55,314 nucleotides of DNA from a virus (Duplodnaviria; Caudoviricetes): IMG/VR virus record IMGVR_UViG_3300049009_000899, positions 1 to 55,314 of that record, one strand, 5' to 3'. This document shows, one piece after another, positions 1,039-29,202 of this stretch. Every line of letters starts with the position of its first letter. Position 1 is the first letter of the stretch. Under the pieces are notes generated by a model. It did not search any database. It saw nothing but the letters and a program-made list of their open reading frames with translations, and had not been told where the DNA came from. The position numbers and the translations under genes are program-made.

Positions 1039-1232
1039 AAAGCCAGGCTCAATGGAAGGCTTGTTTCGCAAGCAAGGGCTTCGGCGGCAGAGTCGACTGC
1101 GGCGAATGGGCTAAGATATCCAAGGGATACAAAGACCTTCCCAAGAAGATAAAGAAGAAGAAAAATAAAAAGAAATCCAAGGGCATCATTTCCTTCAAGG
1201 AATGGATCGAGAAAAAAGACCAGACAGCCTAG
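1029..1232 (+). CDS. Small basic hypothetical protein ([12 protein letters not shown]...)
   Basis: ATG at 1029 overlaps the end of the upstream gene; Lys-rich; C-terminal ISFKEWIE motif. Confidence 0.65.
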
Positions 1233-1843
1233 TTGTCCCTTCCGGTTATCTTCGGGGGAAGCTTGAACGGCGGAAGCTCGTAGAACCTGAAAACCTGCTC
1301 CTGGCTCAGGCTTCCTCCGTTGGACTTCCCGCTGTGCTTTCCGTTTTCCCCACCTTCGTTCGACCCATCACCTCCAGATCCCTTTTCGCCGATGAGGGTC
1401 TTGCCTTTCATCAGCTCCTGCATCGCTTTGGCTGACTTCTCGTGCAAATCCTCAGAGTAAGGAAGCCTGTAAGCCCTCGGCTCGGTTTCGTTCTTCTTGG
1501 ACGAGAACGGTCTGAGCAGGAGGAGGCTCACCTTGCGAATGATTTCGTTGTTTTCGTCTATCTCCGTAGCCCAGAAGAATATGTTGCCTTGGTCACGGGC
1601 GTTGGACTTCGATGGTTCGGAAACCAATATCCAATGAATTATGGACTTTTTAGGCATCGGGCTGTCCGTGCACCAACCGCTCAAGTCGCTCAGCGAATGC
1701 CACATCAGGAAGCTGAAATAAAGGCATATCGATATGAAAGCCAACTTGATGTGCCAAGACCCCTTGGCGTACAGGATGAGCCAAAGACCCATAGAGCAAA
1801 GAACGAGAAACGTGAGTGGTATGCCAACTGCGTTTAGATCCAT
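1229..1843 (-). CDS. Membrane protein (two N-terminal TM helices), last gene of ExbB/ExbD-like operon
   Basis: Hydrophobic segments IPLTFLVLCSMGLWLILY and LAFISICLYFSFLMW; 6 bp downstream of the ExbD-like gene. Confidence 0.75.
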   Translation of the reverse strand: MDLNAVGIPLTFLVLCSMGLWLILYAKGSWHIKLAFISICLYFSFLMWHSLSDLSGWCTDSPMPKKSIIHWILVSEPSKSNARDQGNIFFWATEIDENNEIIRKVSLLLLRPFSSKKNETEPRAYRLPYSEDLHEKSAKAMQELMKGKTLIGEKGSGGDGSNEGGENGKHSGKSNGGSLSQEQVFRFYELPPFKLPPKITGRDN

Positions 1844-1849
1844 GTGACC

Positions 1850-2491
1850 TCAAGGTATTTCTGGTGGTATTACTGGTATGCTGGCTGGCTGACCCTGCTT
1901 TTCCTTCCTTCCAAGGAGTTTCTTCTCTATCTGAGATACTCCGGATATGTCGCCTTTGGAGTTGACCTTGAACCTGAAGCATGTCTTCTCGTCACCGTTC
2001 TTGAGCAGCGTGACCTTCCTCTGCACCACGACGGAATAGTTGGGGCTGATCTTCTCGAGCTGGACTACGACCTCCGTCGGCTTGTCGTGGTTGAAGTTAT
2101 AGGCATGGACATTGACGCAATATTCGCCTTGGACCGTGCCCCTCAACGTGATTATCTCCCTGTTCTCCGAATACGTTATTTTCCCGAATTTGGTCTCGAC
2201 CGTGTCGTTCTTGTGTCCAAGGTCGTCCCTGTCCAGATGCATGAGACCATCTTCCCTCCTTCCGAAGAAGACAATGTTTCCCTCGGGATCCTCGACATAG
2301 GCGTCGACGTCATTGTCCAGATCTTTCGACCACGTGAACGTTATGAGGTACGCAGCCTTCACGTCCGGTGTTTTCTTGTTCTGGTTCATTAGGGCGAAAG
2401 CCAGCACGAAAAGGCAGGCGAAAGCCAAAAGCATGTTGAAAAGGAGGTCGAGGAAAGAGGTGTTGCAGCTGTAGTTTTTTCTTATTCTCAT
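1850..2491 (-). CDS. ExbD/TolR/MotB-like single-TM protein with beta-rich extracytoplasmic domain
   Basis: N-terminal SFLDLLFNMLLAFACLFVLAF carries the intramembrane Asp typical of ExbD/TolR/MotB; TFTWSKDLDNDVDAYVEDPEG resembles YfaP/DUF2135-type domains; 4-bp overlap with the ExbB-like gene. Confidence 0.7.
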   Translation of the reverse strand: MRIRKNYSCNTSFLDLLFNMLLAFACLFVLAFALMNQNKKTPDVKAAYLITFTWSKDLDNDVDAYVEDPEGNIVFFGRREDGLMHLDRDDLGHKNDTVETKFGKITYSENREIITLRGTVQGEYCVNVHAYNFNHDKPTEVVVQLEKISPNYSVVVQRKVTLLKNGDEKTCFRFKVNSKGDISGVSQIEKKLLGRKEKQGQPASIPVIPPEIP

Positions 2492-3006
2492 TGATCTCGT
2501 TCTTGTTTGTCGTTTTCTATCGAGTCGAGCTTAAGCGACACGATGAAGAACTGGAGCTTCAGCGCGCTCCCGCATACAAGACCCACTATGGTCGTGTACA
2601 AAGCCGTAGCCATGCTTGATCCTAGCTGCGACAAGAGAGCTTGCACGGTCTGGATGTTCTGTATGTCGAGGGTGTTGAATCCGTTCAGCATCATTATGAA
2701 CCCAACTATAGTTCCTATCATACCTAGGGTGAGACAAAGTTCGCTGACAAACCAGCCGACCTCGGTTTTCCCGACGAGCTCGTTCATCTTCTTCTGGTTG
2801 GACGATTTTGTGTTTTTGCACATCTCGTAGCTTATCCCGCCACAGTAGATGCTGCAAACCATGAATATGGCATAGGTGGCATAGCTGATGAAGCTGCTGT
2901 CCTTTACCCATATCTCTTTTGCGAATCCGGTGTAGTAGGTGAAGAGAGACATGACGCATATCACGGTGAATATCAACCACCACTGCAAGAAAAGTAGGTA
3001 TTTCAT
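2488..3006 (-). CDS. MotA/TolQ/ExbB proton-channel family protein
   Basis: LTLGMIGTIVGFIMML...MATALYTTIVGLVCG matches the LGxxGTxxG...ALxTTxxGL channel signature; 4 hydrophobic segments. Confidence 0.85.
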   Translation of the reverse strand: MKYLLFLQWWLIFTVICVMSLFTYYTGFAKEIWVKDSSFISYATYAIFMVCSIYCGGISYEMCKNTKSSNQKKMNELVGKTEVGWFVSELCLTLGMIGTIVGFIMMLNGFNTLDIQNIQTVQALLSQLGSSMATALYTTIVGLVCGSALKLQFFIVSLKLDSIENDKQERDQ

Positions 3007-3380
3007 GATTTTCCTTTGCTGTCAGCCAATGCCGAAAGTTCATCAATATTTATGAGTGTTTCGTCATTTGTTTTAGCTTTTTCCTGATCGATTTTCTTGT
3101 TTTTCATCTGTTCGATGATCGACTTGTGCTCCGGCTTGTCGTCGTACAGGACCTGCTCCTCGATTATGCCTGCCACCATGCCCATCATGTAGTAGTTCTT
3201 GCAGCCCGTTATTGTGTGGGTCATCAATACGCCGTCCTCGTCGATCTCGTCTATCGATCCGGTGAAGAAGTCGGCGAACTGGCTTTCTGTGAAATCGTTC
3301 CTCGAAAGCTGCGTCATGATGACGGTGCAGATCTTGCCCACGAACCGTTCCTGCATCTTTTTTATGGTTGATTGTTTCAT
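3003..3380 (-). CDS. Hypothetical protein, possibly Sm/LSm-like beta fold
   Basis: Start/stop overlap with the ExbB-like gene; pattern FVGKICTV...FTGSIDEIDEDGVLM...VAGI loosely resembles Sm folds (inference). Confidence 0.6.
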   Translation of the reverse strand: MKQSTIKKMQERFVGKICTVIMTQLSRNDFTESQFADFFTGSIDEIDEDGVLMTHTITGCKNYYMMGMVAGIIEEQVLYDDKPEHKSIIEQMKNKKIDQEKAKTNDETLINIDELSALADSKGKS

Positions 3381-27654: not shown

Positions 27655-29202
27655 ATGGAAGATATTGTTTTAATCATTTTGGATGAGATCAAACACGAAA
27701 AGAATTGGCTGGTAGACTATCTCAAGGAAAAAAGACAGACCTGCCATCGAACATTCGTCTTCTTTCCGCATGAGTGGTCTAAAAAAAAAGAACAAATAAA
27801 CAGCCATTTGAAGTCCTACAGAAGTTCGGCGACAACATACTTTGCCAGAAAGTGTACGGTGAAGCAAATAGACAAAAAGATCATGCGTGTGTTTTGCGAC
27901 GCTTACCACATACAAGGATCCAACACACTTGCCGTAGTATGCTTCGGAATATTTCATAAGGATGAATTGTTAGGAGTTCTTTCTCTTGGCAGGCATCATC
28001 GAAACAAAGATGAGACTATACTCGACAGAATGTGTTTCAAATCAGACATCCGTGTGGTTGGTGGATCCAGCAAGATGTTCGCCTCGGCTGTTGCGTGGGC
28101 TGAAGAAAATCTTGTAGAAAGAATAACCAGCTACAGCGATAACAGATATAGTCTTGGAACGGTATACGAAAAGCTCAAATTCAAACTAGAAAGAGAACTT
28201 CCTCCAGACTACTTCTATGTTCACAAAGACGACATCAACAAGGTTCACAGTAAACAAAGCCAAAAGAAAGACAATGTGAACTGTCCGAGCCACATGACAG
28301 AGAAACAGTGGGCTTCAGAAAGAGGATTGCTTCAGGTTTTTGACGCCGGAAAGAAAAGATGGGCATATGAATTGAAATCCAGATCGAAAATAAAACTGAT
28401 AAGCAGAAGAAAGGGATACTACAAAACAGTCAAATCCATTCCCAATGTGATTTACTACCAGTCAAGTTACGAATTGAGAGCAGCCACGTTGTTAGACAAT
28501 GACGACAATGTCGACTACTACAAAACCCAAGTCAGATTCAATGTCGATGGGAGAGAAAGAATACTTGACTTCATGGTGACATACATCGGCGGACAAAGAT
28601 GCATAATAGAGGTAAAGCCGACCAGAAGGCTCCATGAGTTCAGAGAGCAAATAGAAGACAACAGAGTGATGGCAAAAAAGAACAATTGTGATTTTTTAAT
28701 CTGGACTGAATTTGAACTTGGCTTCAAATCGGAATATTTTGCAACAAAGTGGGCTGACGAATACATTGGCAGCCTTCAGTCGATTGATTTCGTTCAAGAA
28801 AGAAAAGAAAACAATCTATCCAAAGCTAAAAAATATTATCACAAAAACATAGCCAACGACAAGGTGACCGTGTTCTGCTCCTTCTGCCAGATGGACCACG
28901 CCCCGCTTCGGCTCACGCACGACAAGAACATCGCGAGGAACGGTCGCTACATATGCGAGCGAGAGGGCGGTCACATGGCGGGAAGCAGACCGAAGCCGCA
29001 CCTGCAGAAGGACAACCCGCACCTCGCCGACGGGAAGAAGGAGTGCCTGAAATGCAAGTTCATACTTGACCTGGCGGAGTTCGGCGTTGACAAGGGAAGA
29101 CGCGACGGATTCTCCAGCAGGTGCAAGAAATGCAGGGCTGCCTCGGCTACATCGAAATACCAATCCAAAACCAGAAAAGAAAATGAGGACAACAATATAT
29201 AG
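27655..29202 (+). CDS. Composite putative homing endonuclease: Hef/Mom-like GNAT-type domain + TnsA-like PD-(D/E)XK domain + C-terminal Zn finger
   Basis: FARKC...HIQG...VVGGSSKM...SYSDNRYS.G..Y; YQSSYE...DFMV...IIEVKP; CLKC...DGFSSRCKKC. Confidence 0.7.
   Translation: MEDIVLIILDEIKHEKNWLVDYLKEKRQTCHRTFVFFPHEWSKKKEQINSHLKSYRSSATTYFARKCTVKQIDKKIMRVFCDAYHIQGSNTLAVVCFGIFHKDELLGVLSLGRHHRNKDETILDRMCFKSDIRVVGGSSKMFASAVAWAEENLVERITSYSDNRYSLGTVYEKLKFKLERELPPDYFYVHKDDINKVHSKQSQKKDNVNCPSHMTEKQWASERGLLQVFDAGKKRWAYELKSRSKIKLISRRKGYYKTVKSIPNVIYYQSSYELRAATLLDNDDNVDYYKTQVRFNVDGRERILDFMVTYIGGQRCIIEVKPTRRLHEFREQIEDNRVMAKKNNCDFLIWTEFELGFKSEYFATKWADEYIGSLQSIDFVQERKENNLSKAKKYYHKNIANDKVTVFCSFCQMDHAPLRLTHDKNIARNGRYICEREGGHMAGSRPKPHLQKDNPHLADGKKECLKCKFILDLAEFGVDKGRRDGFSSRCKKCRAASATSKYQSKTRKENEDNNI

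Follow-up and report, generated by a model that had tools for sequence, protein, structure and literature searches.

What do four tightly coupled genes on the minus strand of a viral DNA stretch encode, and which of them belong together? The stretch, called the window here, is the whole of IMG/VR record IMGVR_UViG_3300049009_000899 (55,314 bases), and the genes occupy positions 1229 to 3380. An earlier note on this DNA had described them as an ExbB/ExbD-like ion-driven motor operon with two extra genes. Our analysis showed that three of the genes, gB, gC, and gD, form an unnamed inner-membrane module, found widely among Proteobacteria as well as in Rhizobium phages and large phages of aquatic habitats. 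We consider it probable, on balance, that the trio is a phage-borne copy of this module, a MotA/ExbB-type motor tied in bacteria to pyrroloquinoline quinone (PQQ)-dependent enzymes, and that gA is not part of it. The four genes, in the order of their transcription, are as follows.

3003–3380, minus strand: gA, a soluble protein of 125 amino acids with no hydrophobic segment.
2488–3006, minus strand: gB, a MotA/TolQ/ExbB-type channel subunit of 172 amino acids with four hydrophobic segments.
1850–2491, minus strand: gC, a single-pass protein of 213 amino acids with a membrane Asp (Asp15) and a predicted TerD/DUF2135-like beta-sandwich at about residues 46–195.
1229–1843, minus strand: gD, a two-pass membrane protein of 204 amino acids with a predicted OB-like C-terminal domain.

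The coordinates, the strand, and the tight coupling were as the earlier note had given them: gA overlaps gB and gB overlaps gC by 4 nt, and gC and gD are separated by 6 nt. The soluble nature of gA and the presence of two membrane segments in gD were also borne out.

To define the module we compared gene content among 164 loci encoding relatives of gC. For the bacterial loci, at least 557 were confirmed from 600 pattern matches and the best 80 were kept; the viral set comprises the best 80 of the 124 confirmed among 179 matches, together with 4 further loci. The gene content of each locus was determined by tblastn with the four window proteins. Co-occurrence elsewhere had been named beforehand as a test that could refute the original proposal, and the three genes gB, gC, and gD were found in the same order in 148 of the 164 loci, both viral and bacterial. 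Because this order recurs so often, the arrangement is not due to chance. Only gB and gC were found in 10 loci and only gC and gD in 6, and many of these 16 loci end at contig edges. gD was collinear with gC in 154 loci. No fusions of the trio genes were detected among 486 matching open reading frames (ORFs) in a local search. We conclude that gB, gC, and gD are one conserved unit inherited together, and that gD is its integral third member. The relatives of the trio carry the names "hypothetical," "DUF2135," or generic family labels in their source records, two evident misannotations aside.

The distribution of gA was quite different. It was present in 13 of the 164 loci, all of them close viral relatives, and in 3 of these 13 it was on the opposite strand. 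In LR756511.1, an uncultured phage and the nearest complete one, a gA homologue (33% identity, E 9e-17) is grouped with an exonuclease and a primase; none of the three trio genes lies within 6 kb of that homologue, and the whole record contains no gC relative at E≤0.001. Because LR756511.1 has gA next to the primase without the trio, gA is a neighbour belonging to the phage backbone, outside the module, and the trio is a cassette. gA had no match above any cut-off in Pfam, PHROG, PADLOC, or NCBIfam. The idea of two extra genes therefore did not hold for either gene: gD belongs to the module and gA does not.

The assignment of gB to the MotA/TolQ/ExbB family was confirmed. It matched the Pfam family PF01618 (MotA_ExbB) over residues 72–146 with 35.7 bits (cut-off 22.9; E 8.3e-9; 35.5 bits in the genome search), and it contains both LGMIGTIVG and ALYTTIVGL, the strings quoted when the assignment was first made. 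Nine residues (G95, G98, G102, A135, L136, T138, T139, G142, and L143) were invariant in 53 of 53 homologues, and conserved Thr and Gly residues sit in both channel helices. Segments 2 and 3 are joined by a basic loop of 24 residues, segments 3 and 4 by a loop of 32 residues without Lys or Arg, and the protein ends in a tail of 14 residues. With the loops placed by this distribution of charge, the predicted topology of gB is MotA-like without a cytoplasmic domain.

gC has one hydrophobic segment (residues 16–34) with the sequence SFLDLLF just before it, in agreement with the single-membrane-segment partner described previously. Conservation of the Asp, also named beforehand as a refuting test, was complete: D15 was found in 61 of 61 homologues, as were F13, L17, F18, and N19. 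The same 61 sequences all retained an acidic cluster consisting of D61, D63, D89, D90, D96, E112, and E123. An AlphaFold2 model of gC (pLDDT 82.3) has a helix at residues 8–35 followed by ten strands, and the sandwich that they form starts about 10 residues past the helix. The outer domain had been called beta-rich and non-OmpA; the ten strands agree with this, and no OmpA Pfam domain was found in gC, in its 61 homologues, or in the window.

Foldseek, one of the checks proposed earlier, returned nothing at E≤0.001 for the models of gC and gD. Comparison of the gC model with 48,161 solved chains using VIA-align was more informative: it gave TerD as the best match (2qz7_B, Z 9.4, rmsd 3.2, 123 residues aligned), followed by 2kxt (Z 8.6), with the next match at Z 6.3. 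Identity between gC and TerD was approximately 10–11%, and neither the Pfam TerD family nor any other sequence-level comparison with TerD gave a match. The nearest Atlas cluster to gC was YfaP, a member of the DUF2135 family (score 0.98), and the UniRef names of gC relatives were also DUF2135. Pfam DUF2135 (PF09906) did not match the window gC and gave weak matches to 9 of the 61 homologues, the best of which (E 0.0046) was below significance. As modelled, the outer domain of gC is a TerD/DUF2135-like acidic beta-sandwich. Its acidic cluster suggests a putative metal site, and the domain is predicted, probably, to bind Ca2+ or a lanthanide.

The description of the operon as ExbB/ExbD-like was accordingly half right: gB belongs to the MotA/ExbB family, but gC could not be assigned to ExbD. 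No ExbD Pfam domain (PF02472) was found in gC, in its 61 homologues, or in the window. In a profile–profile comparison (hhalign) of gC with 15 ExbD proteins from trio-bearing genomes, the membrane helix was the only part that aligned, with Asp placed on Asp, at a probability of 2%. Because only the helix aligns, and at that probability, the likeness of gC to ExbD is, as judged from these profiles, one of design with no demonstrable descent.

gD has hydrophobic segments at residues 6–24 and 34–52, and K33, G56, W57, P77, R123, G147, and K198 were invariant in 60 of 60 homologues. In its AlphaFold2 model (pLDDT 77) the C-terminal domain has the order b1-b2-b3-helix-b4-b5 and is followed by a disordered stretch rich in Gly, Ser, and Asn and then by a conserved Pro-rich C-terminal motif. 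A wide VIA search was filled by matches to helical hairpins; a second search gave weak OB-fold rows only, with Z≤6.1 (eIF5A C-domain, Z 6.1). gD matched no Pfam, PHROG, PADLOC, or NCBIfam family and only unnamed clusters in the Atlas, and a sequence profile of gD gave nothing meaningful against the Protein Data Bank (PDB). The distribution of charge places the C-terminal domain probably in the periplasm, and the model suggests that it is OB-like. At E≤0.001 the gD family comprises 1942 representative clusters, in nearly all of which the protein stands alone and measures 170–240 amino acids. The best gD-family match (P0166) is 374 amino acids long with two matched stretches, and appears to combine two gD units by tandem duplication or fusion.

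The bacterial distribution was examined in two genome samples: 301 genomes from the class of genome G001, which also holds a locus titled an alphaproteobacterium (L024), and about 300 genomes from the class of G002, which also holds a Sphaerotilus locus (L071). In the first sample the gC profile matched 41 genomes with a bimodal distribution of scores; 20 genomes scored at least 240 bits (type 1, phage-like) and 21 scored 20–115 bits. In the second sample 32 of 300 genomes had a type 1 gC. Type 1 is a collinear trio whose gC has an LDLLFN-type helix and a GLMHLDRDD loop, both invariant or nearly so, and the window trio fits this description. Type 2 is a paralogous trio. All eight type 2 loci fetched contained gB and gC, seven of the eight contained gD, the order was the same, and the Asp was retained in all eight gC paralogues.

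The type 2 gC proteins carry a VFRDV helix and an NLLRDDLG loop. Type 2 trios are widespread in Geminicoccaceae, Azospirillum (chromids included), and other Alphaproteobacteria, with at least 566 stretches confirmed, and no conserved neighbour beyond the trio itself was found in 79 type 2 loci. The G001 genome contains one type 1 and two type 2 copies. Plasmid occurrence was limited to Azospirillum chromids, at 35% identity.

To relate the phage copies to the bacterial ones, a gC tree was built from 145 rows: 69 viral (window included), 69 bacterial, and 7 type 2 rows serving as outgroup. Sequences containing stops or X, those outside 185–260 amino acids, and duplicates were left out, and a quick method with the LG+G4 model was used. 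The viral or bacterial label changed only 3 times over 138 rows, and one clade with a support of 94 contained 56 viral rows, including the window. The nearest bacterial neighbour of this main viral clade was a Desulfobacterales group, with a weak support of 86. The neighbours of the viral trios were ordinary phage genes that differed by lineage, such as those for a protease, terminase, primase, epimerase, and nucleases. Because the viral clade is deep and its neighbours differ between phage lineages, the module was acquired long ago and kept; the phage copies are old and mostly a single clade. A passenger or decaying gene was also considered as an explanation and was rejected in view of the intact frames, the invariant key residues, and the depth of the viral clade.

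Confirmed relatives of gC were found on no fewer than 124 viral contigs, and in cultured phages they occur in 28 records (26 from Rhizobium and 2 from Sinorhizobium phages). In the T4-like Rhizobium phage RHph_N34 the trio is represented by three consecutive "hypothetical" genes, EVC06_145 to EVC06_147 (gB, E 2e-15; gC, E 4e-53; gD, E 1.9e-5) located between gyrase and a late sigma factor.

The bacterial surroundings of the trio were surveyed by clustering all ORFs of the loci and annotating one representative per cluster. The recurrent neighbours in bacteria were a PQQ-dependent dehydrogenase of the methanol/ethanol family (TIGR03075), a substrate-binding protein (TIGR03863), a beta-propeller protein (TIGR03866), an ABC ATPase, and PqqB. 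TIGR03866 corresponds to PedA2, and the substrate-binding protein to PedA1, of the Pseudomonas putida lanthanide importer PedA1A2BC (PMC12997753). The survey of phage and bacterial neighbourhoods that the earlier note had recommended thus revealed both a recurrent trio and a metabolic context: at least one PQQ-system gene was present within 6 kb in 46 of the 80 bacterial loci. By group, such genes were near the trio in 8 of 10 Pelagibacterales-like loci, with PedA1/A2 upstream; in 12 of 15 loci from SAR86, K189A, and Pseudomonadales, with the dehydrogenase directly downstream and convergent; and in 26 of 31 loci from Burkholderiales and unclassified Pseudomonadota.

The association was also seen at the level of whole genomes. 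In the class of G001, a PQQ-dependent alcohol dehydrogenase (PQQ-ADH, E≤1e-60) was found in 20 of 20 type 1 genomes (18 of them over the family cut-off) versus 56 of 281 others; genomes with type 2 only had one in 5 of 21 cases, showing no enrichment. In the class of G002, it was found in 24 of 32 type 1 carriers (22 over the cut-off) versus 26 of 269 others. Four of these 26 non-carriers are genomes flagged as unpublished (G347, G425, G570, and G580).

The neighbouring dehydrogenases share an invariant Trp-Asp pair, which we take to be the catalytic site. Of the 22 dehydrogenases in the cluster, 18 were full-length; two residues after this Asp, 7 of them, all from the Burkholderiales group, have Asp, and 11, all from the gammaproteobacterial group, have Thr. 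A preprint describes this position as diagnostic, with Asp in lanthanide enzymes and Ser/Thr or Ala in calcium enzymes (10.1101/2020.02.25.964783). By this residue, the neighbouring enzymes are predicted to be of both metal types.

Several further observations concern these bacterial loci. In a Pelagibacteraceae metagenome-assembled genome with a streamlined size of 1.1 Mb (G003, contig C20), the trio is about 12 kb from the single PQQ dehydrogenase, with PedA1/PedA2-like genes between them. The dehydrogenases at nine gammaproteobacterial loci and others are 735–752 amino acids long and carry a fused C-terminal cytochrome c550 PedF-like domain. A protein of 336 amino acids that matches Volactin (Pfam, E 2.5e-71) is encoded 3–6 kb upstream of the trio at six Geminicoccaceae-like loci, and nine viral loci contribute members to its cluster. 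Orf6 and orf7 of Methylorubrum extorquens AM1 are described as two genes of unknown function next to pqq that lanthanide-dependent growth on methanol requires (PMC7391723); no Methylorubrum locus was present among the collected type 1 and type 2 matches listed.

The literature searches returned no paper describing the trio; its genes could be named in supplementary gene tables of transposon or transcriptome work on lanthanides. Nothing was found on DUF2135, alone or with MotA. Searches combining ExbB, MotA, and phage-encoded gave no paper on the module by title or abstract. Among the 20 papers listed by a PQQ search the phrase "MotA TolQ ExbB" was not found, and PMC11996626 contains no mention of MotA, ExbB, or TolQ.

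How might such a module work? In the solved assemblies of ExbBD, TolQR, MotAB, and ZorAB, a ring of A-type subunits surrounds a pair of B subunits, and ions flow by way of an Asp. By analogy, a ring of gB would surround the membrane helices of gC, possibly with five gB to two gC as in the solved relatives, and protons or another ion would pass by way of Asp15 of gC. The movement or conformational change resulting from ion flow would be transmitted to the outer side of the inner membrane. There the acidic TerD-like domains of gC, held by a linker of just about 10 residues, would sit almost directly on the ring. The hairpin of gD, with its small OB-like outer domain, would be the third fixed partner, and the anatomy of the proteins suggests that the working end would be the pair of TerD-like domains plus gD. 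Because the module has no large cytoplasmic, peptidoglycan-binding, or TonB-like part, its output is probably local to the inner membrane and periplasm. Its cellular job is probably tied to the periplasmic, metal-dependent PQQ-ADH system, because the phage-like subfamily is built into PQQ-ADH/PedA1A2BC-like clusters in three proteobacterial lineages; this part of the proposal is drawn from genomic context. A phage lineage would have taken up the cassette long ago and kept it, and its presumed site of action is the envelope of the host during infection. We read the phage trio as a module for energy or metal in the envelope, kept for use in the infected cell.

A number of results weigh against this interpretation, some against the PQQ link and others against the motor. 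PQQ-system genes were found in none of 12 Geminicoccaceae-like loci, which have trehalose genes instead, in none of 9 Desulfobacterales-group loci, and in none of 3 other alphaproteobacterial loci. The Fisher p values for the trio versus PQQ-ADH, 1e-13 in the class of G001 and 3e-15 in the class of G002, overstate independence, the sampled genomes being related. In the class of G002, 8 of the 32 type 1 carriers lack PQQ-ADH, and a complete Desulfobacterales chromosome of 7 Mb has the trio and no PQQ-ADH. In the gC tree the Desulfobacterales group lies closest, among bacteria, to the main phage clade, at the weak support given above. PQQ-ADH was likewise absent from the window and from 5 further viral records, which include a 527-kb record that is 100% complete. 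Because of the Desulfobacterales chromosome, these 8 carriers, and the viral records without PQQ-ADH, the PQQ link is a property of several bacterial lineages and not a proven requirement, and we infer its extension to the phage.

On the side of the motor, a profile of 53 gB sequences gave only remote matches to solved structures (MotA, E 0.016; PomA, E 0.037; TolQ, E 0.12; ExbB, E 0.17). Homology of gC with ExbD, TolR, or MotB was not significant in the helix-only hhalign comparison, and a PDB sequence search with gC gave nothing meaningful, with no ExbD, TolR, or MotB match at E≤10. Assignment of the beta-sandwich to the periplasmic side is by analogy; both flanks of the gC helix carry three Lys/Arg residues, and TerD itself is cytoplasmic. 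The ratio of five to two is likewise borrowed from relatives. A complex prediction for gB, gC, and gD at 1:1:1, made with our own alignments, scored 0.02 against a mark of 0.32, which weighs neither way on binding.

Two more specific versions of the proposal are less secure. A direct role of the phage trio in support of PQQ enzymes is doubtful. It is similarly a tentative suggestion, and one we think unlikely, that Ton and Tol have in the trio a third counterpart among envelope energisers, a minimal ion-driven motor with metal-binding TerD-like heads and an OB-like partner that serve the periplasmic PQQ-quinoprotein system. If that were true, the motor might load Ca2+, a lanthanide, or PQQ into alcohol dehydrogenases or drive a TonB-independent metal route into the periplasm, and large phages would carry a copy to take over a periplasmic node of metal and energy supply.

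The explanation that survives best among the alternatives is that gB and gC power gD, which the earlier note had put forward as a possible energised partner, as a TonB- or TolA-like carrier to an outer-membrane protein; the target would be a lanthanide-chelate or PQQ receptor in bacteria, and the purpose uptake, DNA entry, or release in the phage. The gene order is suggestive, with a third membrane protein always encoded right after the B-type subunit as in exbB-exbD-tonB and tolQ-tolR-tolA, and gD ends in its conserved Pro-rich motif past a disordered stretch. Lanthanide uptake is known to use receptors driven by TonB-ExbBD, and a redundant outer-membrane route in P. putida and M. extorquens is unidentified (10.64898/2026.09.08.750064; PMC7391723). 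The anatomy of gD does not fit so well: it has two membrane helices where a single one would be expected, the outer part is compact, some 130 residues in size, and gave weak OB-like matches only, and its variable disordered stretch of about 25 residues is short for spanning the periplasm. The absence of a recognisable TonB, reported previously, was upheld in that no TonB_C domain (PF03544) was found in the 55-kb window; the window is about 11% of the genome, and a TonB could be encoded elsewhere in the phage. Moreover, the carrier genomes examined (5 of 5) retain 1 to 8 canonical ExbD/TolR genes each, and there was no TonB-dependent receptor among the conserved neighbours. We regard a Ton- or Tol-like carrier as quite unlikely.

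Very unlikely, in our judgment, is a gated ion leak, in which a gB/gC channel would open when the gC domain binds or loses metal. Such a leak would let the phage or cell tune the proton-motive force, for example in the timing of lysis or in blocking the entry of other phages. It would account for a module without a recognisable output arm or a cytoplasmic rotor-binding loop, and for a gC domain held on a linker of about 10 residues with an invariant acidic cluster like that of the Ca2+-binding TerD fold; the phage cassette also lies among early or replication genes (primase, exonuclease, and gyrase). A plain leak, however, leaves both the strictly conserved gD and the tie to PQQ-ADH clusters unexplained.

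Superinfection exclusion or interference with host Zorya and Tol systems had been suggested in the earlier note and found no support here; that the trio is a phage ZorAB-type sensor-motor that blocks competitors is highly improbable, because the defence-library matches that favour it, which for gB are best with ZorA models (PADLOC ZorA2, E 9e-9; NCBIfam ZorA_4, E 2e-7), cover the shared membrane core only, gB having 172 amino acids and no long ZorA tail against profiles of 461–683 positions, the NCBIfam ZorA score being 30.2 bits against a cut-off of 500, gC and gD matching no PADLOC model, gC having no peptidoglycan-binding domain, and the bacterial homologues residing in PQQ-ADH, ABC-transporter, or trehalose clusters and not among defence genes. 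The NCBIfam MotP and PomA models, like ZorA, matched only the core of gB, far under their cut-offs.

The reading of the trio as a motor module with a tie to PQQ enzymes in bacteria has practical consequences. The tie to PQQ-ADH/PedA1A2BC-like clusters turns an orphan module into a testable hypothesis, in the field of calcium and lanthanide quinoproteins, in which gaps are acknowledged in how metals are handled at the outer membrane and in the periplasm. One report states that a complete account of how metal reaches the periplasm is still lacking (10.64898/2026.09.08.750064). Occurrence in a streamlined Pelagibacteraceae genome and in cultured Rhizobium phages gives the module ecological relevance and provides laboratory models at hand. 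Culturable bacteria that carry the trio inside a PQQ cluster include Sphaerotilus mobilis, Azohydromonas lata, Ideonella livida, and Polynucleobacter.

The window itself is phage DNA, encoding a large terminase, portal, major capsid protein, primase, and exonuclease. The record has an estimated completeness of 11%. Because its major capsid protein shares 80% identity with the one in LR756511.1 (595,163 bp), the window appears to be a piece of a very large phage; the primases of the two are 49% identical. The record carries a "provirus" label despite these megaphage relatives, and by these identities the window looks more like a fragment of a free megaphage than a prophage. Near-identical copies of positions 1229–3380 were found in 20 rows from 11 studies, some possibly the same as the source sample, and came from freshwater, lake, estuary, runoff, and drinking-water metagenomes; no RNA data set was listed among the sequencing runs. 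A scan for promoters and terminators gave fewer sites than in shuffled sequence.

Two other regions of the window were noted. Positions 1–1038 on the plus strand contain an open-ended ORF that starts with at least five collagen-like repeats, followed by a run of nine Asp residues and a domain rich in Lys, Glu, and Asp; the collagen-repeat DNA was the sole match to catalogued phages in the first 8 kb, with approximately 75% identity to collagen-like genes of Bacillus phages. Directly 3' of the major capsid gene, positions 27655–29202 on the plus strand contain an ORF of 515 amino acids with PHROG matches of the HNH/homing-endonuclease, Mom-like, head-closure-like, and endonuclease VII-like kinds. 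One possibility is a mobile endonuclease that has become fused to a structural gene or has inserted next to it.

How does the trio compare with the known motors and folds? With ExbB-ExbD-TonB and TolQ-TolR-TolA it shares a MotA/ExbB subunit, an overlapping stop and start, an Asp-bearing single-pass protein, and a third membrane protein, as well as the lack of a large cytoplasmic domain and a probably periplasmic output. ExbB and TolQ have three hydrophobic segments, whereas gB has four; gC has a predicted TerD-like sandwich on a short linker and no ExbD/TolR domain; and gD has two helices and no TonB_C, in genomes that also keep canonical ExbD. With MotAB and PomAB the trio shares a four-segment A subunit, in which the last two helices are the conserved ones, and an Asp-bearing single-pass B subunit. 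It differs from them in that gB, with a loop of 24 residues and a tail of 14, has no rotor-binding domain, and gC has no OmpA-like peptidoglycan-binding domain.

The likeness to ZorAB is confined to the membrane core of gB, which among defence models matches ZorA profiles best; a PADLOC scan of gA, gB, gC, and gD gave this core match for gB only and no ZorB-like partner, and the trio differs from ZorAB in the missing tail of gB and in its metabolic context in bacteria. As modelled, residues 46–195 of gC resemble TerD in fold, and their loops are Asp-rich; unlike TerD or DUF2135 proteins, this domain continues from a membrane helix that bears an Asp, and its gene has a MotA-type gene as partner. 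As far as its sequences allow it to be classified, the trio would work like a Ton/Tol-type energiser yet does not qualify as ExbBD-TonB, TolQRA, MotAB, or Zorya. To our knowledge, ion-driven 5:2 motors power only flagella, Ton, Tol, gliding, and Zorya, and the trio would add to these a compact motor family whose output domain and third partner are both new.

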